Shown here: one piece after another, positions 38,157 through 56,230 of the stretch
How the letters are laid out: every line of letters starts with the position of its first letter
Numbering within the stretch: the stretch's first letter is position 1
DNA from: Candidatus Saccharimonadales bacterium
Lineage (GTDB): Bacteria > Patescibacteriota > Saccharimonadia > Saccharimonadales > DATKHC01
Length of the DNA stretch: 64,000 bases
Assembly: GCA_035510465.1 (NCBI GenBank)
Contig: DATKHC010000021.1
Coordinates: forward strand, 2,876-66,875
Reading direction: 5' to 3'
Program-made: the position numbers and the translations under genes
The notes under the pieces: generated by a model
The model's input: only the letters and a program-made list of their open reading frames with translations
The model's database searches: none
What the model was told of the DNA's origin: nothing

Positions 38157-38453
38157 ATGGTGGACCTTGTGGGACAGCTTTCAAACCCTTTGTCAACCCT
38201 GTTATCCCTGGTGGCAGGGTCAGAAAGAGTCGAAAAAGTCCTCAGGTCTACGAAAAATTGTAACCGGTTGCAGTTGAAACACCAAACACAGGTTCGTCTT
38301 GGGACCAAAGCTGTTGCTGAGCTGATCCAGGCCTACCAAGCTGGTGAGCCGATCAATTCCCTAGCTGAGCGCTTCTTCATTCACCGCACCACTGTCATCG
38401 AGCATGTCAGGAGATCCGGGGTGAAAATAAGGTGGGAGTCCAGGAGGAAGTGA
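38157..38453 (+). CDS. Truncated HTH protein, paralog of 55802..56230
   Basis: AVAELIQAYQAGEPINSLAERFFIHRTTVIEHVRR aligns with RVEDLIRGYIEGVPVDDLATQFGVDQSTVQKHARR. It lacks the second HTH. Its 3' end overlaps an opposite-strand ORF. Confidence 0.5.
   Translation: MVDLVGQLSNPLSTLLSLVAGSERVEKVLRSTKNCNRLQLKHQTQVRLGTKAVAELIQAYQAGEPINSLAERFFIHRTTVIEHVRRSGVKIRWESRRK
38158..38189 (+). repeat. Partial degenerate duplicate of the tRNA-Ala(GGC) 3' end (att-like)
   Basis: TGGTGGACCTTGTGGGAC-agctt-TCAAACCCT versus the tRNA strand TGGTGGAGCTAGAGGGAC-TCAAACCCT. That is 15/18, a 5-nt insertion, then 9/9. It lies 8 nt from the tRNA 5' end. Confidence 0.65.
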
Positions 38454-38600
38454 GGTCTTTGATCTCTTCTTGACACCTTCAATCTGTTCTGAGGTTAGTT
38501 CCTTGGCTAGCTCCATATAGGTCCTGGCTAGTTTTCTTAGATCCGGGTTTTCCTTGCGAATTCCTCGAACTCTGATAATCCTTCTCGGTTGCTTTGACTT

Positions 38601-38630
38601 CATTGACGCGATCTATTGTCGCGCTGATAG
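38601..38630 (+). repeat. 30-nt intergenic motif, copy 1
   Basis: CATTGACGCGATCTATTGTCGCGCTGATAG. The 20-nt core GACGCGATCTATTGTCGCGC is identical in all 3 copies and contains a CGCGA/TCGCG stem with a 7-nt loop. Confidence 0.7.
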
Positions 38631-38654
38631 GAAAAAATTACAAAGTTTGCTTAA

Positions 38655-39206
38655 TTACTGTCGTGTAAGCCACTTCTTTCTTATATCTCTTGAGATAGAG
38701 AAATATAAGATCCAAAAAACTGATGGGTAAAATAGTCGTGCATTGGAAATGAACACGTCATATAAAATACCCGGTGTGTGGACAGCGTCTTTAACAATAT
38801 TTTGATAAATAGCTTCAGCAATGAAGAACCACAATACATAGGCACTGAAATAGCTTATGCTCAAAACAATTGAAATCCTTTTCTTCAGGTTTACAAAGAA
38901 TCCAATCAATAGAGCACCAAGGATCTTTAAGACGTGTGCAACCTGAACTGCAACGTAATAGCCATGCAAGCTTGGATAAGCTGTATTTATTTGGGGCGTA
39001 AGTTTTGAGAACAAACCCTGATACTGGTGTAAATAATAGAGGTTATATACAACTACGTAACCAAGATAAATTAAAAATAGAATTAAAAAGATATTGTACT
39101 TATATGCCTGGAATATTTGACTACTTTCTTTGATCGGTTGTTCTCCAACTCTTGATGCAATGTTCTTCGGTGACGTGTTTTTTCTTGACCGTATATCCTG
39201 TTCCAT
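38655..39206 (-). CDS. Polytopic membrane protein
   Basis: 183 aa with about 5 TM helices. TGCTACAAT (extended -10) lies 7 nt upstream of the ATG. Confidence 0.55.
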   Translation of the reverse strand: MEQDIRSRKNTSPKNIASRVGEQPIKESSQIFQAYKYNIFLILFLIYLGYVVVYNLYYLHQYQGLFSKLTPQINTAYPSLHGYYVAVQVAHVLKILGALLIGFFVNLKKRISIVLSISYFSAYVLWFFIAEAIYQNIVKDAVHTPGILYDVFISNARLFYPSVFWILYFSISRDIRKKWLTRQ

Positions 39207-39240
39207 TGAAATTATTGTAGCACCCCCACATATAACGGTA

Positions 39241-39270
39241 TTTAGACGCGATCTATTGTCGCGCCGATAC
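39241..39270 (+). repeat. 30-nt intergenic motif, copy 2
   Basis: TTTAGACGCGATCTATTGTCGCGCCGATAC, with the same 20-nt core. Confidence 0.7.
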
Positions 39271-39287
39271 GAATTAATTAATAGTAG

Positions 39288-39893
39288 TTATTGAGCAAGC
39301 TGTATTTGAGAAGCACTTGAGATAATCATTTCGGGTTCACCTTTGTAGTTAGTGATAGTTCCTGTGACATCTACGGACTGACCTGAGTATTGACTCAGGA
39401 CACTAGGGCCAAATGAAGTTCCGGCCGGGATATATGCAGAGAAGCCATACGGAGCCGATAAATACTGATCCAGATACATCTCTCCCCTTGAGGAGGTATA
39501 AGCATAGCCAGTAAAGTTAATGCAACCACTTGTACCCTCCATACTGGCTGCATCAGAAACCGGTGAACAAGATGGCGTCGTGCTAGCTGGAGGAGAAGTG
39601 GTTTGCGATGGAGCGGTACTAGCAGGGCTTGTCGAAGTCGTTTGAGGAGTTGTTGTCGTTGCGGGCGCAGGAGAAGTTATTGTCAAATTAGGACTTTTGC
39701 TAGTCGCCGAAGTACTCTTCTGACTGGTTTGTTGCACGTCTATTGGAGTAGAGGTGTTTTTGTGCGAACCAACGGCACCTAGAACTATCAGGAACGCCAC
39801 CACTCCAATTGCTATGCCCGCTTTCTTGTTACTTGATAGCTTTTTCTTTTTGTTAGAGTTCTTTTTTACTTCGTCCTGACCTTGTGTATCCAT
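39288..39893 (-). CDS. Membrane-anchored S/T/P-rich protein with a C-terminal OB-fold-like domain
   Basis: 201 aa: N-terminal TM, a TSxP-rich linker and a C-terminal QSVDVTGTITNYKGEPEMIISSASQIQL that resembles OB-fold termini (weak). Confidence 0.5.
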   Translation of the reverse strand: MDTQGQDEVKKNSNKKKKLSSNKKAGIAIGVVAFLIVLGAVGSHKNTSTPIDVQQTSQKSTSATSKSPNLTITSPAPATTTTPQTTSTSPASTAPSQTTSPPASTTPSCSPVSDAASMEGTSGCINFTGYAYTSSRGEMYLDQYLSAPYGFSAYIPAGTSFGPSVLSQYSGQSVDVTGTITNYKGEPEMIISSASQIQLAQ

Positions 39894-39969
39894 ATGAAGC
39901 CTCTACTTAAGAATTATTAGTTTAAGTATAGCTCGGCCTACATAATATATGTACTTAATATTTGAGTTT

Positions 39970-39999
39970 CATTGACGCGATCTATTGTCGCGCCAATAG
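39970..39999 (+). repeat. 30-nt intergenic motif, copy 3
   Basis: CATTGACGCGATCTATTGTCGCGCCAATAG, with the same 20-nt core. Confidence 0.7.
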
Positions 40000-40071
40000 T
40001 TTCAACAAATAATCTAGTGATACTTGAAGATATTATTTTACGTCGTACAATAAAGTGTGTAAGGAGTTAAT

Positions 40072-40251
40072 ATGGCCAAATCAAATCAAACTAAAAGAAG
40101 CACTCAATCATTAAAAGTTACAAAACAGGAACTTTCGGGAGCCGGACACGTTTTAGGTGACAAGAAGGCAACGAAAGCGGAGAAAACAGATGCTGCTCTA
40201 CTATTAAGAGCTTCGCAAAAATCCGCAAAGTCCAAACCCCAAAAGAACTAG
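40072..40251 (+). CDS. Small basic protein (59 aa) upstream of the protease
   Basis: Own translation: MAKSNQTKRSTQSLKVTKQELSGAGHVLGDKKATKAEKTDAALLLRASQKSAKSKPQKN. AAGGAG SD 5 nt upstream. The stop is 3 nt before the protease ATG. One residue below the track cutoff. Confidence 0.45.
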   Translation: MAKSNQTKRSTQSLKVTKQELSGAGHVLGDKKATKAEKTDAALLLRASQKSAKSKPQKN

Positions 40252-40254
40252 TCT

Positions 40255-41028
40255 ATGCCATTGACCATCACGGCTTTCAATCAATCCGTTGGCGCTCCTA
40301 GCCCAGTTTCTGGTGGGCCTGACCGAGCAGTTGCTGCCATATTTACCGCTGATAAGAATGAGCGCGAAACTAATCCGTTAACTGTCCGCAACTGTTTAGG
40401 TACAGGATTTCTGGTCAATGGTTATGATATCCACTTTGTTACGGCTAGACACGTAGTAGCGGCTCCTCTAGCGCAAGACGAGGAGCTAGTTCTTGCATTT
40501 AACTTGGACTCTGGCTTTTTAAGCATACCTGTTAATTCACTTAGCTTATCAGACTCAACAGATTTAGCATTTGGAACTCTGCTTCCGGAGAACGACGTTA
40601 CAATTCCTGGTTTTCAAATAGCAAGAACTGTACCAATCAACACCGATTGCTCTACGTTGGAACATAGTGGGACAGGACGCAACGTTAGTGCCGGAGGGAT
40701 GCTATATAACGTGAGGTATAGACGAGGAAATATTGTCTCAAGTGGTAAATATGAATATGAGGGGATCTTATCTGAGTCTACGGTCTTTGAAATGTCATAC
40801 CCTTGCTTGTGGGGAGCCAGTGGCTCGCCGGTATTTAACTCAGCCACCCTGGAGTTGGTGGGGATGATGGTTCAGAACGTTGATCACGAACTCGCTCCCA
40901 GCCAGTTAATAAAAGCTGTGGATGACGAGGGACAACTAATCGAAGAAATTAAGTACACAATACCTCAGGGGATCGCGCTAAGTGCGGTAACTATAAACAG
41001 TGAGCTTGACGTCCACGTACTGCATTAA
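40255..41028 (+). CDS. Cytoplasmic trypsin-like (chymotrypsin-fold, Trypsin_2-type) serine protease
   Basis: The catalytic triad can be read off: GTGFLV...FVTARHVV (His), STDLAF (Asp), WGASGSPVF (Ser). No signal peptide or TM. Confidence 0.8.
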   Translation: MPLTITAFNQSVGAPSPVSGGPDRAVAAIFTADKNERETNPLTVRNCLGTGFLVNGYDIHFVTARHVVAAPLAQDEELVLAFNLDSGFLSIPVNSLSLSDSTDLAFGTLLPENDVTIPGFQIARTVPINTDCSTLEHSGTGRNVSAGGMLYNVRYRRGNIVSSGKYEYEGILSESTVFEMSYPCLWGASGSPVFNSATLELVGMMVQNVDHELAPSQLIKAVDDEGQLIEEIKYTIPQGIALSAVTINSELDVHVLH

Positions 41029-41058
41029 ATAAAAAAGGACCATTGGAAATAGAGCTTA

Positions 41059-41766
41059 TTACCTATTCTGAACGTGAGTCACTAAATCATCCAGTAGAGC
41101 TTTAGTGTTAGGGACTAAACCCTTATCTAGAAATACATCAGCTTTATCCGAACTCCTCATCGCTTTTACTACAGGCCCATTATTCTTGGAGTATCCAAAA
41201 GAATTCATCAATACCCCGGAGTCAGAATCCTCAGGATGCTCCAATAGTTTATTTCTCACATTTCTTACAGGGGCAGAGTCAAGCTTCTTTAGGCCCGGAA
41301 GCTTTTGTAGAGTCTTTAATAATCTCGCAGCTCCATAGTAATAATCTGAAACCTTATCTACTAGGTAGTATATGATCTCACGCTCAGCTTCTGGAATATT
41401 CTTTTCGTCTTGTTCATCATAATCAAGTATCGTTGCGCTGACGGACTCAGAATGAACTTCTCTCGGGTTGGGCCCTAAGTGCTTAAGTAACTGTGCAACT
41501 TCAGGGTTAGTCTTGGCGTTTTTCTCTAGGAGTTGAATCATTTCACTGGAAGAAGGAAGTTTCCCGGAGGCCTTTCCGAGTTCCAGGAGTTGAGTAGTCT
41601 TCTCGACTATGTCCTTATATGACCGCTTCAACCTCCGTAGACGTGCCAAACATTCTGACGCCAGTTGCTCTTGTGTATTATCCAGTGAACTACCTATTTG
41701 ACTGAGGTACACTTTCAAGCTCTCAATTACTTCATCGAATTGTGTATCTAAGTCTGGATAGCTCAT
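41059..41766 (-). CDS. Hypothetical helical protein (convergent with the protease)
   Basis: 235-aa ORF, predicted helical, no motif recognised. Confidence 0.5.
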   Translation of the reverse strand: MSYPDLDTQFDEVIESLKVYLSQIGSSLDNTQEQLASECLARLRRLKRSYKDIVEKTTQLLELGKASGKLPSSSEMIQLLEKNAKTNPEVAQLLKHLGPNPREVHSESVSATILDYDEQDEKNIPEAEREIIYYLVDKVSDYYYGAARLLKTLQKLPGLKKLDSAPVRNVRNKLLEHPEDSDSGVLMNSFGYSKNNGPVVKAMRSSDKADVFLDKGLVPNTKALLDDLVTHVQNR

Positions 41767-41838
41767 AAGGTGGTATTCAGTTTAACTAACTTGCAAATCA
41801 AAATTCAATAGCTACTTAATCTATAAACATAAGCGTAA

Positions 41839-41915
41839 TGGTGGGTGATGAGGGGCTCGAACCCCCGACCTCCTCGGTGTAAACGAGGCGCTCTAGCCAA
41901 CTGAGCTAATCACCC
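41839..41915 (-). tRNA. tRNA-Val (anticodon TAC)
   Basis: Manual cloverleaf: GGGTGAT acceptor, anticodon loop TTTACAC, T-loop TTCGAGC, encoded CCA. Confidence 0.9.
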
Positions 41916-42075
41916 GCATATAAAGTCATTGGTAAACGAAAAGTTTACCATATTCCTCAAAAAAGCATTATAAAGTAAAACTATACTTGGGGTAAGTATT
42001 TATAGTTCTGATCATATCCAGAGTATTTATTTTTACCCCTTGACTAATCGTAATTCTTGTGCTTAAATATATATC

Positions 42076-42960
42076 ATGAAAAAGTGGTTCAATCTGGATA
42101 GAATTACTAGAGTTTTCAGAGGGTTTTTAGTACTCAGTTTACTTGGATTTTTTCTTTTAACGTCCCCTGGCTATGCCCTTTCCCCTAACTCCTCAGGCAG
42201 CCCTACGCACATGCTTAATCTTAGCCCCGCTGTTGGCAGCTTAGCCGACGGTTCTTCTGGCCCAATTACGGGTTCTAGTCAAGGGGTATGTGAGGGTAGT
42301 TTCTGTTGGTATTATTCCGGAGCAGAAGAAAATTACATTAATGCAAAGGGTGCATCGGTTTCGATGACACAAGCCGATCCAGTTGTTAGTACCACCGACT
42401 ACCACTCCCTAACTGAAATAGCTCTTAAGTCTCAAAACGGACAACAAATCGTAGAATTTGGTTGGATAGTTGCGCCTGAAATGTTTGGTGATTCTCTACC
42501 TCATCTGTTTGTATACCACTGGGTGAACGGTAACTCAACTTGCTATGACACTTGTGGTTACATTTCTTTAGCTTCCCCCAACCCCGTTGGAAGTCCTGTC
42601 ACGGTCGGTCAAACTGGCAAATACGAAATCAAGTACTCGGGCAATAAATGGGAAATTATCTATAACGGTCAGTATATAGGCTACTTCCCTGAGTCAATTT
42701 GGGGTGGTAGCTTTAAAAAAGCATTTACGGTAGAGATTTACGGAGAAGTTTCTGCACCGAACGGAGTAGCCCCAACAACCCAAATGGGTAACGCTATTCT
42801 TGGTAACGAACCTGGTGCTGCACAAGTTTCAAATTACGATCTTATAAACTCACCTGTTAAAGAAAAGTTGTATCCTTTCGTTTTCGGTGACCCAAGATCA
42901 TACGCCATAGGCAACGTCACAAAAACCAGCTTTAGCTACGGCGGCCCAGGCGGTTATTAA
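42076..42960 (+). CDS. Secreted neprosin/DUF239-like protein
   Basis: Signal/TM at the N-terminus. HSLTEIALKSQNGQQIVEFGWIV...LFVYHWVNG...CYDTCGYISL...NKWEIIYNGQYIGYFPESIW follows the neprosin-domain pattern as I recall it. Confidence 0.6.
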   Translation: MKKWFNLDRITRVFRGFLVLSLLGFFLLTSPGYALSPNSSGSPTHMLNLSPAVGSLADGSSGPITGSSQGVCEGSFCWYYSGAEENYINAKGASVSMTQADPVVSTTDYHSLTEIALKSQNGQQIVEFGWIVAPEMFGDSLPHLFVYHWVNGNSTCYDTCGYISLASPNPVGSPVTVGQTGKYEIKYSGNKWEIIYNGQYIGYFPESIWGGSFKKAFTVEIYGEVSAPNGVAPTTQMGNAILGNEPGAAQVSNYDLINSPVKEKLYPFVFGDPRSYAIGNVTKTSFSYGGPGGY

Positions 42961-42975
42961 GCTTTTGTCGATGGC

Positions 42976-44574
42976 TTAGCTGTCTAACTCTCTCTTTACA
43001 ATCAACGAACCGGCCCCGACATGTATTTGTCTAGCTCTTCTCGCACCATGTTCGAGCATTGCCCTAAACTGGTCATTGGTCATTTGTTCTCTGTCAATTA
43101 AATCGGAGAAATCTTTATCATTTTGCATCATCCCTTGCCTGAACTCAGCTCCATAATCTTTAGGGAAAGCGAAGGTAACCCTTACGCCTAGACTCTGGAG
43201 ATATTGTTGCTCTGCTAACAGTTTAGGGTAAGGACTGTTCGGAATTTCGCTAAGACGAACGTAACCATCTCCGCGCCTAACTAGGGGATCAATATATCTA
43301 TTTTTTAACGGACCCACCAAATAACTCAAAGCATCCGAGTTATCAAGTCGAGGTATTTTTACTTGATCCAGTACAGCTCGCTCCTCATCAGTTAACTCAA
43401 CTACTTCAGTATGAACAGTTGAAGATTTTGGCCCAAACTCAACACGTTTCGGTCCAAGATAATCAGATGGATAGTTTTCAGCCTTATCGTCCAGAATAAA
43501 TCTAGCGTACTCGGCTAAGCGATAGTTGGTAAACTTTTTTCGCTCTTCCATGCCACTAGAGTTCAGCTCGTTAGAAATTAAATAGATAAATGTATCTGTT
43601 GAGCCCGGACCCGTTACTAGTGCGTCATTAAAATCCTGGTCGATTGCATGAAAATAGGATATGGGGGTTCGGGTTTGACCCTTATCCACTTCGTCCATCC
43701 AGCTAAGTCTACGACTCATAATTGAATGTTGGACTGCGTGGATACCTAAGTGAAGATGTGTCCGATTTAGGGGATCGTTATAGTGTTCAGCAGCAAAAAG
43801 TAGAAGTAGCTTGGACAATACCAAAGCCGCCTCCTCATCCATAATTGCCAGTTGACCATCTGGGGTAAGTTCATAATTGGATAGATCTACAGCTTTTTTA
43901 ACCTTCTCTCTCACTTGAGGATCGACGTATTCATGATCAAACCAGAGCAAAGCTTCGGCGGCAATATATTGCAATCGATCAACATCAATGTCTCGTCTGT
44001 CTTTTGCTTTAGCCCATTCAGGAACCTCAATACCCGGAACTCTTATCTTTTCGTCATAAGGTATTCCATACCGATCTAACACCCCTGTAAAACCACCTAG
44101 GTTTGCAATCCTGGGCCAAATAACTTCATGCCAATCTTCAGGACCACCCCAGTTCTGAACTGCTTGTTCAAGTTGATGAGAAAAAGCTGGGTGGGCCTGG
44201 TCATCTCCTTCAACGTCAATGTGTATAGCTTGGATACGTTCAGGTGATAAGCCTTGCATATGTCCAAACCGCTCAACAAGTTCATGTTGAGCTATAAGAC
44301 CCCAGCCCCTATTAAAGCTAGCAAGGTTAGGGATAGTGCTACTTTCTCGGCTTTTGCATAGTTGTGATACACCCAATGACCTGAAAAAACTGGTGGTAGT
44401 AAACAGATCGTAGCTTACAGGATCCGTTATAACGAAATCCCCAAGCCAAGGATCTTCCACCATTATGAAACCTTCGTTGACGGTCAATCTCATAACATCA
44501 TGCCCCGTACTGAAGCAAGTAATCTCAGGGTCTCTCTCCACGTGCAGACCATATCCTGAAGAAATTTCATTCAT
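42976..44574 (-). CDS. HD-domain (SAMHD1/dGTPase-like) family protein with substituted metal-binding residues
   Basis: DPWLGDFVI...FFRSLGVSQL...ASFNRGWGL...VEGDDQAHPAFSHQLE...WHE parallels DPvhG / FQRLrxIkQLG / tRfeHSlGV / LLHDiGHxPFSHxxE. The first His and the His of HD are replaced. I prefer the ATG at 44574 to the track start at 44610. Confidence 0.55.
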   Translation of the reverse strand: MNEISSGYGLHVERDPEITCFSTGHDVMRLTVNEGFIMVEDPWLGDFVITDPVSYDLFTTTSFFRSLGVSQLCKSRESSTIPNLASFNRGWGLIAQHELVERFGHMQGLSPERIQAIHIDVEGDDQAHPAFSHQLEQAVQNWGGPEDWHEVIWPRIANLGGFTGVLDRYGIPYDEKIRVPGIEVPEWAKAKDRRDIDVDRLQYIAAEALLWFDHEYVDPQVREKVKKAVDLSNYELTPDGQLAIMDEEAALVLSKLLLLFAAEHYNDPLNRTHLHLGIHAVQHSIMSRRLSWMDEVDKGQTRTPISYFHAIDQDFNDALVTGPGSTDTFIYLISNELNSSGMEERKKFTNYRLAEYARFILDDKAENYPSDYLGPKRVEFGPKSSTVHTEVVELTDEERAVLDQVKIPRLDNSDALSYLVGPLKNRYIDPLVRRGDGYVRLSEIPNSPYPKLLAEQQYLQSLGVRVTFAFPKDYGAEFRQGMMQNDKDFSDLIDREQMTNDQFRAMLEHGARRARQIHVGAGSLIVKRELDS

Positions 44575-44674
44575 TGGTCCGAGTCTAACTCCTGTACTGC
44601 TCAGACGCAAGCACTAGCATTTTCAGATCAAATAAAGCAATGGTACCGCCAGCTTCAGCTCTTGCTAATTTGTC

Positions 44675-45361: not shown

Positions 45362-45423
45362 ACCACATGCAATTATACTTACTCTTGCTCTATTTCAAAC
45401 CAGTAGCACATACAAAGAACACC

Positions 45424-45507
45424 TGGTGCGCGAGAGAGGATTCGAACCTCCAAGCCTTGCGGCGCTAGCCCCTCAGACTAGTGTGTATACCGTTCCACCA
45501 CTCGCGC
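45424..45507 (-). tRNA. tRNA-Leu (anticodon GAG)
   Basis: Manual fold: GCGCGAG acceptor, anticodon loop CTGAGGG, long variable arm, T-loop TTCGAAT, encoded CCA. Confidence 0.85.
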
Positions 45508-50363: not shown

Positions 50364-51237
50364 GGGTTTCCATATCTTTCAAGCGGGCAATTCTTTGATC
50401 AATTGGTGGGTGAGTGCTAAAAAGATTGGTAACGGAATGGGCTTTAAGGGGATTGGCGAAAAAGAAATGAGCTGTTGAAGTATTTTGTTTTTTTAGTACG
50501 CTACCAGTCCGTTCGATCTTTTGGAGTGCGCTTATCAAACCTTCTGGGTAACGAGTAGTTAGCGCGCCGGTGGCATCAGCCAAATACTCTCTCTTTCGTG
50601 ATACTGCTAGTTGAATCAGTGTCGCAATTATCGGTGCTAAAATTGCCGCTACAATACCTACAATGAAGAATATCTGATTATTGTTGCCTTCATTATCTCG
50701 GCCCCTGAAAAAACTCATTCTGATCATAATGTCTGCGATGATACTGACAACCGCAACCAGAGCAAAAACTACCATTGAGACTCTAATGTCATAGTTTTTT
50801 ATATGGCCTAGTTCGTGAGCAAAAACGCCCTGCAGTTCATCATCGTCCATAATGGCCAGGAGCCCAGTGGTTGCGCAGACCGCTGCTTTGTCCGGTTTAC
50901 GACCGGTTGCAAAAGCGTTAGGTGAGGGATCGTCCATTATAAAAACACGGGGCATCGGTAGCCCATCAGTAATTGATAAGTTCTCAATTATTCGCCAGAG
51001 CCGTGGATTATCACTTTTTTGAATTTCTTTTGCGCCATTTACTGCTAGCGCCAACCTTGAACCAGCAAAGTAGGTGATAAGCGCGTAAACCGCTGCCCCA
51101 ATCAAAACGAAGGGCAAGATTGCAAGATCGTCATTATTGTAAAGCGCAAATACGTAGCCAATACCAACTATAAGAGCCAGGAATATAATTATGATTAAGT
51201 AGGTTTTACGTTTATTAGAGGCTATCTGTGAGTACAC
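50356..51237 (-). CDS. htpX: M48 zinc metalloprotease HtpX
   Basis: HELGHIKN zinc motif, 4 TM topology, C-terminal STHPPIDQRI. Confidence 0.9.
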   Translation of the reverse strand: MYSQIASNKRKTYLIIIIFLALIVGIGYVFALYNNDDLAILPFVLIGAAVYALITYFAGSRLALAVNGAKEIQKSDNPRLWRIIENLSITDGLPMPRVFIMDDPSPNAFATGRKPDKAAVCATTGLLAIMDDDELQGVFAHELGHIKNYDIRVSMVVFALVAVVSIIADIMIRMSFFRGRDNEGNNNQIFFIVGIVAAILAPIIATLIQLAVSRKREYLADATGALTTRYPEGLISALQKIERTGSVLKKQNTSTAHFFFANPLKAHSVTNLFSTHPPIDQRIARLKDMETHA

Positions 51238-51286
51238 TGGGGGATTTCCTTTTTGGTTGCAACTTTAATGAAGTTGATAGACGTGT

Positions 51287-51853
51287 TTAGAATTTTACAT
51301 TAACAGGTTGTTCGACTTGAGCTTGTTCGGCTTCGCCAATTTCAAAGAATTCTTTATCAATATGAAAACCGAGAATATTTGCGAAGATCTTGGTTGGGAA
51401 AACTTTCCTTTTGGTATTGAAGTCCCTGACTACCCCATTATAAAAGCGACGGGCCGCTTGAATTTTGTCTTCTGTGTCTGTAAGTTGAGCTTGTAAGTCT
51501 AGGAAATTCTCATTTGCCTTTAACTGCGGGTAGTTCTCAGCAACCGCAAACAGGCTTTTCAGTGTTTGACTGAATTGATTCTCAGCCTTAGCAGTTTCTG
51601 CTACTCCATTGGCATTAAGCGCTTGGGAACGCGTTTCAGCAACTTTTTCGAAAACGGTTTTCTCATGAGCTGCATAACCCTGGACTGTATTTACCAAATT
51701 CGGGATTAGGTCATAACGTCTTTTGAGCTGAACTGTTATGTCACTCCAGGCCTCATCAGCTCGTACATTTAAACGGACCAAACCGTTATACATCGCAGCA
51801 GATATAATGCCGAGTACAACCAAAATAGCAATTATTACATAAACAACATCCAT
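51287..51853 (-). CDS. lemA: LemA family protein
   Basis: N-terminal TM plus the YNGLVRL...RRYDLIPNLV...AENYPQLKA...ARRFYN pattern. Confidence 0.85.
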   Translation of the reverse strand: MDVVYVIIAILVVLGIISAAMYNGLVRLNVRADEAWSDITVQLKRRYDLIPNLVNTVQGYAAHEKTVFEKVAETRSQALNANGVAETAKAENQFSQTLKSLFAVAENYPQLKANENFLDLQAQLTDTEDKIQAARRFYNGVVRDFNTKRKVFPTKIFANILGFHIDKEFFEIGEAEQAQVEQPVNVKF

Positions 51854-52020
51854 AATTTAACTCCTGAAATTTACCCTTTGATTATACATTAGCTTCACTT
51901 AAAAAACGAGGTCCGATATGGCGGTTTCTTAGAGTGCCCATTGGACCGGTTTAATCAGCTAATTAATTATGTAAGTGCTTTTGCTTGCATTTAAACCTAC
52001 CCCATATATTCTATTAGTTA

Positions 52021-52239
52021 ATGGACATCGATAACTTACGGGAGCAAGTCCCAAGCGCAGAACGAGAATTAGGTGATAACCATGGATTTGTAGCAGAGGT
52101 TTTCAGGCTTCAGGCATTAAGAGAGCAACTTGCGCCAAGGTTTCAACTGCTCGTAGAATTTCTCAGTGGCACTTACGATAGGTTACGGCCCTTAACCGAG
52201 ACTCCACCGCTAAAGATTGTTTTAGAGGAGGTCCCCTGA
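52021..52239 (+). CDS. Hypothetical protein (possibly the 5' part of a frameshifted gene)
   Basis: 72-aa ORF ending at a TGA inside GTCCCCTGA. The +1 frame is open from 52223 into the next ORF. Confidence 0.35.
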   Translation: MDIDNLREQVPSAERELGDNHGFVAEVFRLQALREQLAPRFQLLVEFLSGTYDRLRPLTETPPLKIVLEEVP

Positions 52240-52267
52240 CGAGGATGGCGTTTTAGCTGTAGCAATA

Positions 52268-52672
52268 GTGCCTCTTAAGCTCAGAAGTGACGGAGAAGAC
52301 TGGAATGAGACATTCGACCGCTATTTTAATTTCACAAAAGCTGTGCCACCGATTGGATTTGGGTTGGAATTTTATTTCGTTCCCTCTAATCCCGGTGTAG
52401 GCGAAAAAGATGTTGTGATTGGGCAAGAGAGCACCTTATGGCAATCTACGTCCGGGCAACTCAGTTTTGACATGATCCCAGGGCTGTTAGCTTGGCCACC
52501 TGCACCCACCTCTGCCACTCAGGAAAAACTTAGGGAACTTAAAGCCTACGAGGATATTTATTGGGGGGGCAGGAAAGAACAGATCGAGGATTTAGAAAAA
52601 TCTGTTGCGAGGATCAGACTTGCTCTAGATGATCCTGTGCTGAATCCAACGATACACCGAATGAGAGCTTAA
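52268..52672 (+). CDS. Hypothetical protein (possibly the 3' part of the same gene)
   Basis: 134-aa ORF with a GTG start in the track. Its frame is open upstream to 52223. Confidence 0.4.
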   Translation: MPLKLRSDGEDWNETFDRYFNFTKAVPPIGFGLEFYFVPSNPGVGEKDVVIGQESTLWQSTSGQLSFDMIPGLLAWPPAPTSATQEKLRELKAYEDIYWGGRKEQIEDLEKSVARIRLALDDPVLNPTIHRMRA

Positions 52673-52675
52673 AGA

Positions 52676-52876
52676 TCAGGTCTCTTCTTTCGCTTGATCA
52701 GAGTTGCCAATTTTGACACCTTCGAATACATGACTTCTCGGTCCTACCACACCAATCCTTATCCCGTCTTCCCTCTCAACTATGACAAGAGTAGCGTTTT
52801 CACCTACATCAGCTACCTCATAAGTTGTGGTCTGAGCCGAAGTGTCTTCTGCTCCCGATATTTTTTCAGCTGACAT
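52676..52876 (-). CDS. Small hypothetical protein
   Basis: 66 aa. On the minus strand TTAGAA, 17 nt, TATAAT, 6 nt, ATG supports expression as a leaderless mRNA. Confidence 0.45.
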   Translation of the reverse strand: MSAEKISGAEDTSAQTTTYEVADVGENATLVIVEREDGIRIGVVGPRSHVFEGVKIGNSDQAKEET

Positions 52877-52922
52877 ATCCTAATTATACTATCAATCAGT
52901 TATGGTTCTAATAAGCGGGTCA

Positions 52923-52980
52923 TGGTGGACTTGAAGCAATTTCTTTCGAACACCTTTTAGGTTGGTTAGATCATCTTATT
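52923..52980 (+). repeat. R1 repeat, copy A
   Basis: TGGTGGACTTGAAGCAATTTCTTTCGAACACCTTTTAGGTTGGTTAGATCATCTTATT. One mismatch to copies B and C in the first 32 nt. Confidence 0.8.
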
Positions 52981-53038
52981 ATAAGCTTTCGACAGCCGTG
53001 AAATAAAATCGATCGAACAATTAGGTATAACAACTGTT

Positions 53039-53100
53039 GGATGGAAGGCGTGGACGAGTCAAGTTGCTCATTTAGCCCATAGCATCCATCTTTTTTATTT
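53039..53100 (+). repeat. R2 element, copy A (hairpin plus T tract)
   Basis: GGATGGAAGGCGTGGACGAGTCAAGTTGCTCATTTAGCCCATAGCATCCATCTTTTTTATTT. About 80% identical to copy B. Confidence 0.7.
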
Positions 53101-53122
53101 GGCATTCAGTTACCAAAAAGTC

Positions 53123-53151
53123 TTGACAAGTTAATTATATGTGCGTACAAT
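53123..53151 (+). promoter_or_regulatory. Consensus sigma70-type promoter of the mazEF-like pair (leaderless)
   Basis: TTGACA (53123-53128), 17 nt, TACAAT (53146-53151), 6 nt, ATG (53158). The inverted repeat CGTACA/TGTACG spans the -10 and is a possible operator. Confidence 0.65.
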
Positions 53152-53157
53152 GTACGT

Positions 53158-53475
53158 ATGAATACAATAGACACAAATCTTACAACTTCCGGCAATAGCG
53201 TTGCAGTGCGCTTACCTAAAGAGCTACTTAAAATGAGTGGCCTAGGTAATAAGGTAACCCTACAGGCAAAAAAAGGTAAAATAATTATTAGTAAGCCTTC
53301 TAACCCCCGTGCCGACTGGAGTCAGAATATTAAAGCAATGGTAGAGAAGTATGGAGATCCTTCTGAAGAGTTTACCGAAATGAATGATTCCTTAGTCGGG
53401 GATGGGTTAGATAACTTGCCGTGGGACGGGATTACTTACGAAGAATGGCTGAAAGATAATGATAGAGTTTCCTAG
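53158..53475 (+). CDS. AbrB/SpoVT-fold antitoxin (MazE-like)
   Basis: NSVAVRLPKELLKMSGLGNKVTLQAKKGKIIISK is a swapped-hairpin AbrB-type motif. Overlaps the toxin gene by 17 nt. Confidence 0.8.
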   Translation: MNTIDTNLTTSGNSVAVRLPKELLKMSGLGNKVTLQAKKGKIIISKPSNPRADWSQNIKAMVEKYGDPSEEFTEMNDSLVGDGLDNLPWDGITYEEWLKDNDRVS

Positions 53476-53785
53476 ACAGGGGTCTATCTATTGGTTTAAC
53501 CCCGAGCCTTCTAAGGGAGCTGAATTACGTAAGATTCGTCCTGGAGTTATAGTTTCTCCTGATGAAATGAATAGCAATATAAAAACCGTAATTATTGTTC
53601 CGCTTACTTCTGCTGTTAGGCCATGGGACTTTCGTTTGAAGATATTGGTTGCTGGACATAGTTCAAGTTTAGCCTGCGACCAAATACGTTCTATAGATAA
53701 AACTAGGCTAAAGTACCAAATGGGTAGCCTAAAAAAATCTGATTTAGAAAAACTGTTCGTATTATTGCAGTCAATTTTCTCCTAA
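53459..53785 (+). CDS. MazF/PemK-family endoribonuclease toxin
   Basis: GSIYWFNPEPSKGAELRKIRPGVIVS...VIIVPLTS...CDQIRSIDKTRL follows the PemK/MazF pattern. Confidence 0.85.
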   Translation: MIEFPRQGSIYWFNPEPSKGAELRKIRPGVIVSPDEMNSNIKTVIIVPLTSAVRPWDFRLKILVAGHSSSLACDQIRSIDKTRLKYQMGSLKKSDLEKLFVLLQSIFS

Positions 53786-53793
53786 TTGAAAAA

Positions 53794-53850
53794 TGGTGGA
53801 CTTGAAGCACTTTCTTTCGAACACCTTTTACGCTGGTTAGACAATTTATT
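53794..53850 (+). repeat. R1 repeat, copy B
   Basis: TGGTGGACTTGAAGCACTTTCTTTCGAACACCTTTTACGCTGGTTAGACAATTTATT. Confidence 0.8.
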
Positions 53851-53918
53851 ACAAGTTTCTGAGAATTATTAAATAATGTGACTTGGCCTAGACAAAAGTC
53901 GTACGTACAATAATAGGT

Positions 53919-53980
53919 GGATGGAATGCGTGGACGAGCCAAGTTGCTCAATAAGTCCAAAGCACCCGTCCTTTTTATTT
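53919..53980 (+). repeat. R2 element, copy B
   Basis: GGATGGAATGCGTGGACGAGCCAAGTTGCTCAATAAGTCCAAAGCACCCGTCCTTTTTATTT. Preceded by TTGGCC, 17 nt, TACAAT. Confidence 0.7.
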
Positions 53981-54959
53981 ATACTTCACTAATAACGTCA
54001 AAGCCCTTGAAGCTTCCTGTGATCGAAAGGCCAATTATCTTTCCCTTGCACAGCCCTCTTTGTCCTATTTTCTTGGCAGTCTCATTTAATGTTGACCCCG
54101 AGCCAACCGCATCATCAATAAGAAGAATGTTATTATACTTCCTCGTATCATCCACGCTAATAGTTTCTCGAGCGTTAATTATTCTATCTTCAATCTTGTT
54201 TAGAGTCTTCTGGGGTACTGCAATGGGAGTTTTTACCTTAAAGATAGGAATGGTTCTCACGTTTAAGTTAAGCCTGCTTTGAAGCTGTTTTACTAGCTGT
54301 AGCTCCCTTCTAACTGTTGGCGGTATAAAGCCAACCCCATCTACTTCGTATTTATCTATCAGACGAAGAACGATTGGCTTAATAATGTCACTGAGCTCAT
54401 TTATAAGTTTCCGGTTTTGGCTTTGTTTGGCAAATAGTAACAATTGCCCTAGTTTTGTTTTGCCAAATATTTCTACACTATAGAAATCAATATAAAACAC
54501 TTTATCGAGAGCAACTTCATCAAATGACGTTTTCAGCTTGTACATTCCGTCTATGAGTCCGGCTTTCTTATAATTGCTATACTTGAGCATAGTCTGTTTA
54601 TAACGCTCAGCAGTTTTGGCAAGGTCAAGACTTCTTTCGTTACACCAATATATAAAACCCTCCGTGCCTTCCTGGATGGTTCCCCGGGGAGTAATATACA
54701 GAAACTCCTTTTCGATTATTCTCTTTGCGGCTGCATTGATGATTGAAGAATCACGAGCTTCAGAAGATATTGGTTTGTCTGCTATTGAATAATAAACCCT
54801 TGGTGGCTTGCCAGTCCGCTTAACTTGGTCGTTATCCAAAAGGGCTTTAAGCTGTTTCCTAACAGCTCTGTCCGTGATACCTAGGTAATCAATAAGCTCG
54901 TTGCCTGTCACTTGACCAGTGTTTCTCAGATACTCAACAATTTTTTTTGAAGTTTTCAT
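53979..54959 (-). CDS. Winged-HTH fused to a ComF-like phosphoribosyltransferase
   Basis: N-terminal DeoR-like wHTH (VTGNELIDYLGITDRAVRKQLKAL). C-terminal PRPP-binding loop ILLIDDAVGSGSTLNE, with a ComF-like central region. Confidence 0.7.
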   Translation of the reverse strand: MKTSKKIVEYLRNTGQVTGNELIDYLGITDRAVRKQLKALLDNDQVKRTGKPPRVYYSIADKPISSEARDSSIINAAAKRIIEKEFLYITPRGTIQEGTEGFIYWCNERSLDLAKTAERYKQTMLKYSNYKKAGLIDGMYKLKTSFDEVALDKVFYIDFYSVEIFGKTKLGQLLLFAKQSQNRKLINELSDIIKPIVLRLIDKYEVDGVGFIPPTVRRELQLVKQLQSRLNLNVRTIPIFKVKTPIAVPQKTLNKIEDRIINARETISVDDTRKYNNILLIDDAVGSGSTLNETAKKIGQRGLCKGKIIGLSITGSFKGFDVISEV

Positions 54960-54975
54960 ACTAACAGTATATCAC

Positions 54976-55010
54976 AAAAGTTCCTAGTTCCTAGTGTATT
55001 AGGAACTTTT
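54976..55010. terminator. 11-bp perfect inverted repeat flanked by A and T tracts (bidirectional terminator or operator)
   Basis: AAAAGTTCCTA-13 nt-TAGGAACTTTT followed by TTT. The loop holds a tandem GTTCCTAG repeat. It sits between relE and the PRTase -10 (TGATATACT, 6 nt before the ATG). Confidence 0.45.
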
Positions 55011-55058
55011 TTTAATATCCCTTCGGAGAATTAATAGATCCCTATTAAGAGTCCGCTC

Positions 55059-55115
55059 TGGTGGACTTGAAGCACTTTCTTTCGAACACCTCTTAAGCTG
55101 GCAAGATCATCTCCT
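55059..55115 (+). repeat. R1 repeat, copy C
   Basis: TGGTGGACTTGAAGCACTTTCTTTCGAACACCTCTTAAGCTGGCAAGATCATCTCCT. The left flank GTCCGCTC is shared with the copy at 55800. Confidence 0.8.
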
Positions 55116-55148
55116 GAAGGCCTTTGATCTCAATAACACTAAATCAGA

Positions 55149-55409
55149 TTATTTGTACAGTTGAGGATGGGTTCCTATAGCTACAAATAGCGCCGAACTT
55201 TCGCCCTGCGGTAGATAGTGTGCTCGCCAATAGCCACCAAATGCTATCGAACGATGACCTTTCCACCTACCTGTTAGAGGATGATTATAAAGATCTGGGT
55301 GGTAAGGTTCGGATTCGAACAAAGCAATTACTTTTTCGAAACGTTTTTTCTGTGCTTCAGGTAACTTCTTATATTGTTTATCAAACGATTTGTGGAAAAC
55401 GCTTCTCAT
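55149..55409 (-). CDS. RelE/StbE (YafQ-like) mRNA interferase toxin
   Basis: 86 aa with the FDKQYKKLPEAQKKRFEKVIALFESEPYHPDLYNHPLTGRWKGHRS pattern of RelE/ParE-superfamily toxins. Confidence 0.8.
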   Translation of the reverse strand: MRSVFHKSFDKQYKKLPEAQKKRFEKVIALFESEPYHPDLYNHPLTGRWKGHRSIAFGGYWRAHYLPQGESSALFVAIGTHPQLYK

Positions 55410-55681
55410 AACGATCTAAGGTGGGCGATGGTCTCTTCTGTTGAATTTGTACGAGTAATGTTACGGCCAGCTTTATAGTCGGCTTCAGCCTCTTTAATGA
55501 TTTTTTGCAAATAGGGCGTTGGCTCAAGAGTAGTACTAAACTCAACCCTACCATTACGGAGCATTTCTTTAATTTGAGCATTCAATAACGCAGACACAGG
55601 CAACCCAACCTGAGCGGCGAAATCCTTAAGTTGTTCCTTTGTTTCGGGGTCTGTTTTAATATTGAGTATTGCTGTGTTCAT
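55406..55681 (-). CDS. RelB/DinJ-family antitoxin
   Basis: NIKTDPETKEQLKDFAAQVGLPVSALLNAQIKEM is an RHH DinJ-type N-terminus. 4-nt overlap with the toxin. Confidence 0.8.
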   Translation of the reverse strand: MNTAILNIKTDPETKEQLKDFAAQVGLPVSALLNAQIKEMLRNGRVEFSTTLEPTPYLQKIIKEAEADYKAGRNITRTNSTEETIAHLRSL

Positions 55682-55687
55682 AAAGAC

Positions 55688-55717
55688 ATTATATGACTAT
55701 TATATACACATTGTCAA
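55688..55717 (-). promoter_or_regulatory. Consensus promoter of the relBE-like pair (leaderless)
   Basis: On the minus strand: TTGACA, 18 nt, TATAAT, 6 nt, ATG (55681). Confidence 0.6.
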
Positions 55718-55799
55718 TACGATATTTCATTATTTTTCGAACACAAAATTGGATTACTCTACCCCTGTTTACATATCAAGCTAATCTTCAAGTCCGCTC

Positions 55800-55829
55800 T
55801 GGTGGAGGTAATGGGACGTTACTTGAACC
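55800..55829 (+). repeat. Diverged R1/att-like copy at the left border of the GC-rich island
   Basis: TGGTGGAGGTAATGGGAC-gttac-TTGAACC versus the tRNA-Leu(CAG) 3' end strand TGGTGGGGATGAGAGGAC-TCGAACC. That is 13/18, a 5-nt insertion, then 6/7. Confidence 0.6.
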
Positions 55830-56230
55830 ATTCTGACCAGGGAGAATGCCTCCGGAACCTCCTCGAAATGCTCCCATCTGGGTCCAAAACGGCGAAAGTT
55901 CGAACCCCAAGGCGGGTCTGCCGGCGTCTCGACCCATCCCGCGTGGAGGACCTAATCCGGGGCTACATAGAGGGAGTGCCGGTCGATGATCTCGCCACCC
56001 AGTTCGGGGTTGATCAGAGCACCGTCCAGAAGCACGCTCGCCGACATGACTTGCCCCGCCGGTCACCCCGATTAGGTCCTAACCAGACCGAGGAGGCAGT
56101 TCGGCTCTATCTCGCTGGTCAGTCCTTGGCCAAACTGTCCGATCACTTCGGTGTTGCGACTGACACCGTCGCTCTTGCTTTGCGTAGAACCGGGGTCACC
56201 TTGCGACCACGGCGGGGGTGGTCGAAGTAG
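55802..56230 (+). CDS. Tandem helix-turn-helix DNA-binding protein
   Basis: Two HTH units: VPVDDLATQFGVDQSTVQKHARR and QSLAKLSDHFGVATDTVALALRR. GTG start inside the att-like repeat. Confidence 0.6.
   Translation: MEVMGRYLNHSDQGECLRNLLEMLPSGSKTAKVRTPRRVCRRLDPSRVEDLIRGYIEGVPVDDLATQFGVDQSTVQKHARRHDLPRRSPRLGPNQTEEAVRLYLAGQSLAKLSDHFGVATDTVALALRRTGVTLRPRRGWSK

Follow-up and report, generated by a model that had tools for sequence, protein, structure and literature searches.

Islets and repeats along the locus

The window, the whole 64,000-nt stretch of DNA analysed here, carries an island (island 1, 55802..59816) with a GC content of 50–52% in a 42%-GC Saccharimonadales genome (0.50–0.52 across 56–60 kb vs ~0.42 elsewhere in the window), flanked by genes that belong to the Candidatus Saccharimonadales MAG. 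Its first gene encodes a 142-aa HTH protein (55802..56230, + strand), and its backbone further includes a 76-aa coiled-coil-like gene (57643..57873, − strand) and a 145-aa gene (59177..59614, − strand) whose product lacked a family match. This backbone, comprising the HTH, 76-aa and 145-aa genes and the 200-nt right end, is common to the Acidimicrobiaceae chromosome OY970155.1. The segment holding the 76-aa gene (57624-57893) is 91% identical in nucleotides to Acidimicrobiaceae locus L008 (6416-6685), and 59177-59822, which covers the 145-aa gene and 59615-59816, is 84% identical to the same locus (8889-9535). Island 1 is foreign to its host genome.

Two spacing classes hold at every site tabulated. 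GGAC occupies positions 10-13 in HTH starts and tRNA junctions alike, and TYRAAC(C) lies at positions 19-25 in HTH starts and R1 repeats and at 14-20 in tRNA junctions; HTH starts thus read GGAC-N5-TYRAACC and tRNA junctions GGAC-TYGAACC, a shift of exactly 5 bp. Likewise, element arms carry the 9-bp ACTYGAACC 5 bp farther out than tRNA arms do, and palindromes are ~52 bp long in the element type vs ~40 bp in the tRNA/host type.

Both junctions of island 1 are exact. On the right, it abuts the 3' end of tRNA-Leu(cag) (59817..59902, − strand), a tRNA-side (attB-type) half-site reading TGGTG/GGGATGAGA GGAC TCGAACC; in L008 the same end abuts an HTH-like start, ATGGAGGTCCTGGAACGGTATTCGAACC. The right (P) arm carries a perfect 11-bp inverted repeat (CACCGGTACAT / ATGTACCGGTG, 59612..59662), followed by a further arm-motif copy (GGACTTGAACCA, 59679-59690), and no symmetric half-site was found in it. 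On the left lies site D (55786..55835, + strand), centred on TGGTG/GAG at 55804/55805. Its right arm (GGAC at 55814-17, GTTAC, TTGAACC at 55823-29) is an element-type (attP-type) half-site identical with HTH codons 1-10, and the HTH start codon falls exactly on the mobile-element boundary. The left arm consists of CTTCAAGTCC (55786-55795), in which GGACTTGAAG stands inverted and at tRNA-type (attB-type) spacing, so that the empty site, as reconstructed, is palindromic over ~40 bp.

Upstream of site D, R1 repeats separate a MazE/MazF toxin-antitoxin islet (53158..53785, + strand, R1-A to R1-B), an islet for a 326-aa winged-HTH and phosphoribosyltransferase-like protein (53979..54959, − strand, R1-B to R1-C) and a RelB/YafQ toxin-antitoxin islet (55149..55681, − strand, R1-C to site D). 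R1-A (52897..52970, + strand) is a full ~52-bp imperfect palindrome, with ATGGTTCTAATAAG at 52902-15, the centre TGGTG/GAC at 52927/52928 and then TCGAAC at element-type spacing. R1-B (53768..53841, + strand) matches the right half of R1-A except for one base and has a degenerate element-type arm as its left half. The 16-nt left flank of R1-C (55033..55106, + strand), AGTCCGCTCTGGTGGA at 55050-55065, recurs at site D (55791-55806).

A putative island 2 (38157..41838) lies in the interval from tRNA-Ala(ggc), whose 5' end is at 38149, to tRNA-Val(tac) (41839..41915, − strand), whose 3' end at 41839 forms a tRNA-type half-site, TGGTG/GGTGATGAG GGGC TCGAACC. It begins with a second-clade HTH gene (38157..38453, + strand; 98 aa, MVDLVGQLSNP...), truncated to one HTH domain, whose first 30 nt are the element-type half-site GACCTTGTG GGAC AGCTT TCAAACC. 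The layout is that of island 1 and of loci L031 and L047, which suggests a second island unit; its GC is not deviant, and the unit would therefore be old or native.

The codon strings quoted in the earlier note are all present, at 38157 (ATGGTGGACCTTGTGGGACAGCTTTCAAACCCTTTG), in R1 at 52925, 53796 and 55061, and at 55799 (CTGGTGGAGGTAATGGGACGTTACTTGAACCATTCT). The pattern TGGTGGA-N16-TYRAAC occurs five times in the window, always on the + strand (R1-A/B/C, 55800 and 38158), against 0.01 expected, and the looser GTGGA-N16-TYRAAC five times against 0.14; the pattern was defined post hoc, and the enrichment figures are generous for that reason. The R1 repeats reported earlier are real, and their length had been understated: in all three copies conservation runs from ~25 nt before TGGTGGA to 40 nt beyond it, and between copies A and B it covers ~215 nt.

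Constraint on the first codons of the HTH gene

The 142-aa protein consists of a poorly modelled N-terminal stretch of 44 residues (AlphaFold pLDDT 41-60) followed by two three-helix HTH domains (80-93). The homology proposed between the two long ORFs was confirmed by BLASTP (E = 3e-9), the region upstream of the HTH included, and the N-terminus is retained in >100 homologues. Disappearance of the N-terminal similarity had been set beforehand as a refuting point; the similarity strengthens with 30 further homologues, G5 and N9 being invariant within V-E/D-V/L-x-G-R/Q-Y/L-L/S-N. The fraction of synonymous differences is 0.08 in codons 1-16, 0.18 in codons 17-40 and 0.44-0.56 in codons 41-140. 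Conservation of the N-terminus is thus mainly at the DNA level; it reaches ~codon 40, with a second TCGAACC motif near +100.

It would be very improbable, on these data, that the motif is kept for a protein-level reason, as a targeting or interaction peptide, with R1 as chance or tRNA-fragment look-alikes. The invariant amino acids G5 and N9 fit such a role, and KVYLxGRYSNR, a duplicate located in frame upstream, looks like a repeated peptide; yet this 'peptide repeat' also lies directly against tRNA-Ala without a gene. Furthermore, synonymous sites of codons 1-16 are nearly frozen (0.08 vs ~0.5), residue 8/9 changes non-conservatively from L to S while the DNA stays TYR-AAC, the N-terminus is modelled poorly, and R1 retains the DNA spacing, not the Gly. 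The CTT/TTG and TCA/TCG differences that had been read as synonymous do exist, and the DNA motif TYRAAC explains them as well as coding does.

The earlier note had further regarded R1-A/B/C as beheaded gene starts, a view that was not borne out. Their reading frames hit a stop after 12, 15 and 12 codons, a six-frame HMM search recovered no HTH coding remnant after any copy, GGAC is missing at positions 10-13 and with it the invariant Gly, and neither of the two conserved flanks is related to the HTH gene. The R1 copies are att-type, element-side half-sites of the same spacing class as HTH starts, from which the HTH gene may possibly have been lost.

Protein matches were found to the CRISPR-repeat-binding protein 2LVS, Tc3, IstA and paired domains, the best by sequence and fold being 2LVS (profile E 3e-8; Foldseek E 1e-4) and Tc3. 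Like the Cbp2, Tc3, IstA and paired-type proteins, which read extended repeated DNA sites, the HTH protein has a pair of three-helix HTH domains with a linker between them; unlike Cbp2, Tc3 and IstA, it has neither a transposase catalytic domain nor a CRISPR context, and its DNA binding is predicted. This architecture is that of a bipartite HTH of the repeat-binding type and would fit an accessory site-binding factor or regulator; the excisionase or directionality-factor role raised by the earlier note is a candidate function.

Recurrence of the junctions in other genomes

In 19 of 21 full-length Acidimicrobiales-type copies, upstream homology ends exactly at GTGGAGG, and in the other two (L006, L019:1165) it breaks at or within the first codons; the upstream flanks sort into a few recurrent types. 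An HTH start (+), cargo and the 3' end of a tRNA gene (−) follow one another in six cases, two of them in the window, so that HTH homologues do lie at element/tRNA junctions as the earlier note had expected. The host gene is tRNA-Ala tgc in L003 and L010 and tRNA-Val tac in L047, and in L031 an insert of 5.1 kb separates tRNA-Ile gat from tRNA-Ala tgc in the same layout. A tRNA lies within the 6-kb flank in only 2/16 Acidimicrobiales loci, and the tRNA of L033 is arranged differently. Same-strand tandem arrays occur in L004/L008, L019, L001 and L051, and cargo often consists of ordinary metabolic or regulatory genes.

These observations also bear on an operator interpretation, in which the start-codon palindrome is autoregulatory, the family a much-duplicated ordinary regulator and the likeness to tRNA and R1 incidental. 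Many sites are indeed 50-53-bp imperfect palindromes on the start codon (e.g. AGGGTTTGAAAG-N29-CTTTCAAACCCT in L040), the protein is a bipartite HTH of the DNA-binding type, no recombinase lies nearby, and metabolic or regulatory cargo is frequent. We nevertheless consider it unlikely, as it leaves unexplained the exact homology break between loci at the palindrome centre, the six cases in which the far end of a unit meets the 3' end of a tRNA, the Acidimicrobiales unit with these exact ends in a Saccharimonadales genome and the gene-less R1 sites between unrelated toxin-antitoxin islets. Operator function could coexist with att function.

The proposal of the earlier note that one sequence serves as both att site and HTH gene start is largely right. 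Across a large family, the start codon and ~10 codons coincide with the homology break. The same bases delimit on the left a foreign island that ends on the right at the 3' end of a tRNA, they resemble the 3' half of a tRNA (acceptor and T arm) in reverse complement with 5 extra bases, and synonymous sites are frozen in the first codons. With a probability of roughly 70%, the repeated ~35-nt sequence of R1 and the HTH starts is the element-side (P') att half of small islets that insert at tRNA 3' ends and accumulate in same-orientation tandem.

Proposed recombinase class and mechanism

Large serine integrases show a 5-bp shift of the ZD motif and a ~10-bp size difference between attP and attB, and the A118/LI integrase model has imperfect palindromes of ~50 bp in the element and ~40 bp in the host (PMC3783163). 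Here, too, the distal 9-bp motif lies 5 bp nearer the centre in the host-type half-site and the central GG is non-palindromic. This half-site geometry suggests a large serine recombinase. Unlike in A118/LI, the sites have no linked serine integrase: motif scans and Pfam searches detected no recombinase gene in the window, and a conserved recombinase near family members, a check raised by the earlier note, was not found in ~20 neighbourhoods. The one large serine recombinase seen, in L008, was rejected, as it belongs to an unrelated element always inside IS21 istB. Two further differences are that conservation on the gene side extends well beyond 25 bp and that complete attP-like palindromes, which many chromosomal sites are, persist in chromosomal arrays; the latter counts against the proposal because simple attP x attB integration leaves none. 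Also against it, the sequences analysed showed neither an empty site nor a circular junction or an excision product, the P arm of island 1 has no symmetric half-site, R1 lacks GGAC at positions 10-13, and a nearby tRNA was seen in few of the Acidimicrobiales loci.

Conservation to ~codon 40 and the second TCGAACC exceed the needs of a ~25-bp serine-integrase half-site and look more like tyrosine-integrase attP arm sites, or an operator. The same islets and att logic might be served by a tRNA-targeting tyrosine integrase, an alternative that we consider less likely, with either the short core TGGTGGR or the 16-nt AGTCCGCTCTGGTGGA as overlap region and ACTYGAACC as arm- or core-type binding sites. 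The 16-nt direct repeat on either side of the RelB/YafQ islet (55050-65 and 55791-806) would suit this enzyme, as would conservation and repeated motifs that reach ~100 nt inside the gene and ~135 nt along the other arm, a pattern typical of long attP arms; tandem accretion by re-use of a tRNA-adjacent site is also well known for tyrosine integrases. However, the outer motif is displaced by strictly 5 bp in two divergent clades and R1, which is unexpected for tyrosine-recombinase core sites and is the signature described for large serine integrases, and motif scans and Pfam searches found no tyrosine recombinase gene either.

For the preferred reading of element-side att halves, recombination would be site-specific and catalysed in trans. 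In intact members, crossover would take place at the start codon (GGTG/GA) of the bipartite HTH gene, and the first ~10 codons (loosely ~35-40) would thus be dictated by the DNA site, not by the protein. After integration, the HTH gene would stand at the junction away from the tRNA, parted from the element's other end, which probably carries its promoter region and would now lie against the tRNA. The HTH protein may bind the repeated GGAC-N5-TYGAACC in an accessory, directionality or regulatory role. In SSV1-type archaeal integrases, the int ORF itself contains attP, which matches the 3' end of a tRNA, and integration splits the integrase gene. The two cases are alike in that one DNA stretch is both a tRNA-like att site and coding sequence and that integration disrupts the ORF context; here, by contrast, the gene encodes a small HTH protein and crossover falls at the start codon, so that the ORF would stay intact and lose its upstream region.

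The ssrA-specific islands and cis-mobilizable elements of Dehalococcoides, formed by accretion, lie in tandem downstream of one small-RNA gene and are bounded by its 3'-end repeats; many lack an integration module and are read as att-flanked and mobilised in cis or trans, the integrase being a large serine recombinase (PMC3146451). The islets described here are likewise tandem, repeat-bounded and devoid of an integration module. Unlike those islands, they use several tRNAs (Leu, Val, Ala, Ile), no member was found with an integration module, and the distal repeat is a tRNA-end look-alike with 5 extra bases that encodes an HTH gene start. Tycheposons are described as small cargo elements at tRNA genes in streamlined genomes, in islands with element remnants and partial tRNA repeats (bioRxiv 10.1101/2020.12.28.424599); the gathering of small cargo elements at tRNA genes is similar, whereas the recombinase and hallmark genes defining tycheposons in that account are absent here.

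Altogether, the tRNA-Leu(cag) hotspot would comprise four units, namely three toxin-antitoxin/PRTase islets, each with an R1 site and no HTH gene at its head, and one 4-kb islet, probably a recent acquisition from Acidimicrobiales, and tRNA-Val(tac) would carry a second, older unit. The islets would thereby represent tRNA-targeted tandem islands without a recombinase gene, in which an att half also encodes the start of an HTH gene.

Shared sites and the HTH gene family

Both HTH gene starts and all three copies of the repeat R1 (~35 bases) were confirmed in the window sequence, with ATGGTGGACCTTGTGGGACAGCTTTCAAACCC at 38157, CTGGTGGAGGTAATGGGACGTTACTTGAACCATTCT at 55799 and GTGGACTTGAAGCAMTTTCTTTCGAACACC in R1-A, R1-B and R1-C (52925, 53796 and 55061). 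The pattern TGGTGGA-N16-TYRAAC, defined post hoc after the sites had been seen, has five matches in the window, all at these sites and all on the + strand, versus 0.01 expected. Even for a post hoc pattern, three independent groups of sequences where no more than 0.14 matches are expected lie well beyond chance. Rfam searches over the whole window (gathering threshold) and over 52.6-56 kb (E-value threshold) yielded five tRNAs plus noise and nothing else; R1 is therefore not a known RNA. In addition, the R1-to-D3 units showed no structure signal on folding (z-scores +0.24 and -0.19). Downstream of R1-A and R1-B, at a distance of ~100 nt, is a second repeat (53022-53100 and 53902-53980, 81% identity between copies) that terminates in a hairpin and T-run and folds with no sign of stability (z about 0); R1-A and R1-B thus belong to a ~215-nt repeated unit.

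The ORFs at 38157-38453 (98 aa) and 55802-56230 (142 aa) are homologous (E = 3e-9), and the 142-aa protein has 103 database homologues, mostly 75-88% identical. The N-terminal similarity on which the earlier note relied persists in a 32-sequence alignment that includes the 38157 ORF, in which Gly5 and Asn9 are invariant. Genome matches fall exclusively in Acidimicrobiales MAGs, often in multiple copies. A metagenome scan with ATGGTGGAC-N12-CTTTCRAACMC retrieved 32 loci, the majority of which form a second clade (MVDLxG(R/Q)LSNP...HTH) that also contains the 38157 ORF. Four scans of viral contigs, two with DNA patterns and two with proteins, found no relatives. Low-GC R1-like matches from the metagenome scan (loci L029/L038, L037/L052, L048 and L050) were isolated, lacked arrays, tRNAs and HTH genes, and were treated as chance. 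Second-clade genes such as those of L033, L026 and L046 have two copies of GRLSNP, one at the N-terminus and one (GRLSNPVQRRL) shortly ahead of HTH domain 1; the intervening ~150 nt are absent from L040 and L041, as if deleted by recombination between direct repeats.

Profile and fold place the 142-aa protein among bipartite HTH (HTH_23/HTH_7/paired-like) DNA-binding proteins. In Pfam, HTH_23 (32 bits), HTH_28 and Sigma70_r4_2 exceed their cut-offs, HTH_7 does not, and the excisionase-type HTH_17 is sub-threshold at 17.7 bits (cut-off 27). The top match in a PDB profile search is 2LVS, a CRISPR-repeat-binding two-HTH protein (E 3e-8). Furthermore, the AlphaFold model consists of two three-helix bundles, for which Foldseek matched 2LVS and the bipartite domains of Tc3, IstA, Mos1 and Pax, all of which read extended or repeated DNA sites. 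The protein might plausibly recognise GGAC-N5-TYGAACC repeats and so serve as an accessory factor, a directionality factor or an autoregulator.

The conservation of the N-terminus resides mainly in the DNA. When 12 intact copies were compared, codon pairs for one and the same amino acid showed synonymous differences at a fraction of 0.08 over codons 1-16, 0.18 over codons 17-40 and 0.44-0.56 over codons 41-140. In the AlphaFold2 model, residues 1-44 have pLDDT 41-60, against about 80-93 for residues 45-130, which form the two three-helix HTH domains. At the DNA level, the invariant Gly matches GGAC and the invariant Asn matches AAC, and position 8/9 changes from Leu to Ser between the clades, yet the DNA remains within TYR-AAC. 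The gene start is a clear natural case of codons fixed by a DNA site instead of by the protein.

The start codon as an island boundary

In 19 of 21 full-length Acidimicrobiales-type copies, upstream similarity is lost exactly at GTGGAGG, and in the remaining two (L006 and the copy at 1165 in L019) the break falls at or within the first codons. The upstream flanks of these copies sort into a few recurrent types, and downstream similarity stops no more than about 30 nt past the stop codon. Within the window, 57624-57893 and 59177-59822 are 91% and 84% identical, respectively, to L008, a segment of the Acidimicrobiaceae chromosome OY970155.1. In L008, the same right end meets a second HTH-like start, ATGGAGGTCCTGGAACGGTATTCGAACC (translation MEVLERYSNLLDQGE), which is then broken by an IS21 fragment; in the window, the homologous right end meets the tRNA-Leu(cag) 3' end, TGGTGGGGATGAGAGGACTCGAACC. 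This comparison therefore delimits island 1 as 55802-59816, running from the HTH start to the tRNA 3' end. An independent Logan contig (L023, from SRR8676596) also holds island 1 together with the left junction to the RelB/YafQ pair, and from its length this contig may reach the tRNA-Leu end as well.

The GC content of the window at 56-60 kb is 50-52%, versus 42% for the sequence, and the genes flanking island 1 are those of a Candidatus Saccharimonadales MAG. Foreign composition and phylogeny apply to island 1; putative island 2 (38157-41838, headed by the 98-aa HTH gene) and the R1 islets lack them and have no deviant GC. Island 1 is a recent cross-phylum transfer of a 4-kb islet from an Acidimicrobiales-like Actinomycetota into a Saccharimonadales genome. 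Saccharimonadales-type bacteria are epibionts living on Actinomycetota hosts, so the islet may represent host-to-epibiont gene flow. Elsewhere in the window, a host ORF at 13856-15856 (- strand) resembles, by eye, haem-copper oxidase subunit I, which would be atypical for a lineage with very reduced metabolism.

Site-specific excision would be predicted to leave the empty site ...CTTCAAGTCCGCTCTGGTGGGGATGAGAGGACTCGAACC and the circle junction ...TATTCCTATAGTTATGGTGGAGGTAATGGGACG. Integration would strip the HTH gene of its native upstream region, which would be moved to the opposite end of the islet. No strong promoter was predicted upstream of 55802. The 390-aa cargo protein of island 1 (57955-59127, - strand) has an N-terminal region weakly similar to nucleoside 2-deoxyribosyltransferase and weak PHROG matches; its role is probably anti-phage defence, because TIR, SIR2 and toxin-antitoxin genes are found in related islets.

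Site geometry and a proposed enzyme class

An arm table of about 60 sites, centred at GGTG|GA, separated two kinds of half-site. All HTH starts read 9 nt, GGAC, 5 nt and TYRAACC (at 19-25, as for TCGAAC in R1), whereas all tRNA junctions read 9 nt, GGAC (or GGGC) and TYGAACC (at 14-20). The outer motif ACTYGAACC therefore lies exactly 5 bp farther out in the element arms. Many sites also carry a left inverted arm at element-type spacing, giving imperfect palindromes of 50-53 bp centred on the start codon, for example R1-A, the 55-nt upstream module of Acidimicrobiales copies, and loci L034, L042, L040, L047 and L041. At site D, the left junction of island 1 (55786..55835), the left flank CTTCAAGTCC (55786-95) reads as GGACTTGAAG inverted, with the spacing of a tRNA arm. 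Site D thus looks like a hybrid of a host arm and an element arm, and the empty site, once reconstructed, forms a palindrome of ~40 bp.

These dimensions match those documented for large serine integrases, in which the motif for the zinc-ribbon domain lies at 16-24 in attP half-sites and 5 bp nearer the centre in attB, and attB (~40 bp) is about 10 bp shorter than attP (~50 bp) (PMC3783163). The 5-bp distal-motif shift is matched by the element and tRNA arms described here. By analogy, we infer that a large serine integrase would act at these sites, and take this as the best mechanistic lead. Two features suit the attP of a tyrosine integrase, or an additional role as operator, no less well: the DNA-level conservation that runs to about codon 40 with a second TCGAACC motif, and a further motif copy in the other arm, about 135 nt in (59679-90). 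An integron cassette array was rejected because the breakpoints fall at the palindrome centre and not at an end box; moreover, neither a GTTRRRY box nor intI was present. The arm table gives a rule, with GGAC-N5-TYRAACC versus GGAC-TYRAACC predicting element arm versus host arm, and this rule points to a testable enzyme class.

A conserved recombinase near family members, for which the earlier note proposed to check, did not appear. The islands and about 20 related neighbourhoods gave no Pfam match to Phage_integrase, Resolvase or Recombinase; island and cargo ORFs from the window and from about 20 related loci yielded no integrase when searched with Pfam and PHROG; and regex scans for tyrosine- and serine-recombinase motifs gave nothing relevant. 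Likewise, no complete element with its own integrase occurred among the loci examined. The units thus behave like att-flanked elements without recombination genes. One candidate, the only large serine recombinase close to a site, is encoded in L008 (10652-12418), 1.1 kb from an HTH-start fragment. It belongs to a 743-aa family (HTH_17, Resolvase, Recombinase and Zn ribbon; L008 and L061-L065) that is always inserted within IS21 istB, in unrelated places, and is therefore unrelated to the arrays. This family is very abundant in Acidimicrobiales and looks like a serine-recombinase element targeting another insertion sequence.

Tandem units at tRNA genes

Homologues do lie at tRNA junctions, a point that the earlier note proposed to check: one boundary coincides with a tRNA 3' end in four related loci and twice in the window. 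Island 1 is bounded by the tRNA-Leu(cag) 3' end at 59817; putative island 2 runs from the HTH start at 38157 to the tRNA-Val(tac) 3' end at 41839, with the tRNA-Ala(ggc) 5' end immediately to its left. Among the related loci, tRNA-Ala(tgc) lies 5.3 kb downstream of the HTH gene in L010 and directly against the 55-nt upstream module in L003, the HTH gene of L047 is followed by tRNA-Val(tac), and in L031 tRNA-Ile(gat) and tRNA-Ala(tgc) are separated by a 5.1-kb insert that carries the HTH gene. At the tRNA-distal boundary, TGGTGG(R) alone is identical to the tRNA end, the remainder being tRNA-like with a 5-nt insertion. One islet is flanked by a 16-nt direct repeat. Family, boundaries and spacing rule together support the dual-use idea that a tRNA-like att site is also a gene start.

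By tblastn on the related loci, same-strand HTH copies recur at intervals of 3.5-6 kb; some are frameshifted and others fragmentary. Such arrays occur in L004 (copies at 111, 6001 and 9440, running on into L008 at 6001 and 9532), L019 (1165, 7251 and 11249), L001 and L051. Upstream of the copies at 111 in L004 and 6001 in L012, a ~60-nt insert of repeated GTGGTCCATCAATTGGGGTCAAG-like units separates the 55-nt module from the HTH start and may be a small repeat element using the same junction. The cargo of the islets comprises toxin-antitoxin pairs, defence-like proteins (TIR, SIR2 and a nucleoside-deoxyribosyltransferase-like protein), regulators, enzymes of resistance type and some operons of ordinary metabolism. 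Neither the island 2 cargo nor that of the R1 islets had a homologue among the loci compared. Three copies of GACGCGATCTATTGTCGCGC..., a short palindrome, occupy intergenic gaps of putative island 2 (38605-38640, 39245-39280 and 39974-40009) and could be terminators or another repeated site.

In the window, four att-flanked units without recombination or transfer genes stand in tandem from 52923 to 59816, bounded by R1-A, R1-B, R1-C and site D. In order, this tRNA-Leu hotspot carries MazEF after R1-A, an HTH-PRTase protein after R1-B, RelB/YafQ after R1-C and the Acidimicrobiales islet after site D. R1 and the HTH starts have the same centre, the same orientation and TCGAAC at element-type spacing, so R1 is the same kind of att half-site; R1-C and site D also share 16 nt of left flank. 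For the earlier note's description of the R1 copies as beheaded gene starts, the sequence gives no trace of a gene: when all six frames of the window were searched with the family HMM, the two known ORFs alone matched, with no decayed HTH coding after R1, and R1 lacks the Gly codon and GGAC. Conserved flanks also reach both sides of R1. That R1 is a decapitated HTH gene is conceivable but somewhat doubtful.

The system is a variant of the recombinase-less tandem islands that target tRNA genes. Among described systems, its nearest parallel is found in Dehalococcoides, where fifteen of the tandem ssrA islands lack an integration module and were read as cis-mobilizable elements brought together by accretion; the integrase of these ssrA islands is a large serine recombinase resembling CcrB (PMC3146451). 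With a probability of roughly one in five, the units described here could form a platform for gene capture at tRNA genes, widespread among Acidimicrobiales and other high-GC lineages and able to cross into Saccharimonadales, served by an unlinked recombinase and with the HTH protein as a cassette-borne specificity or directionality subunit. Recombinase-less cassettes would then be shuffled by that enzyme, the attP-type half-site being written into the start of the bipartite HTH gene. If true, each cassette brings its own site-recognition factor and not the enzyme.

Altogether, the puzzling repeat is accounted for as half of a recombination site. It belongs to a large undescribed family of small islets, with more than 100 HTH homologues and a second clade found by DNA pattern, which bring toxin-antitoxin, defence and accessory genes beside tRNA genes.
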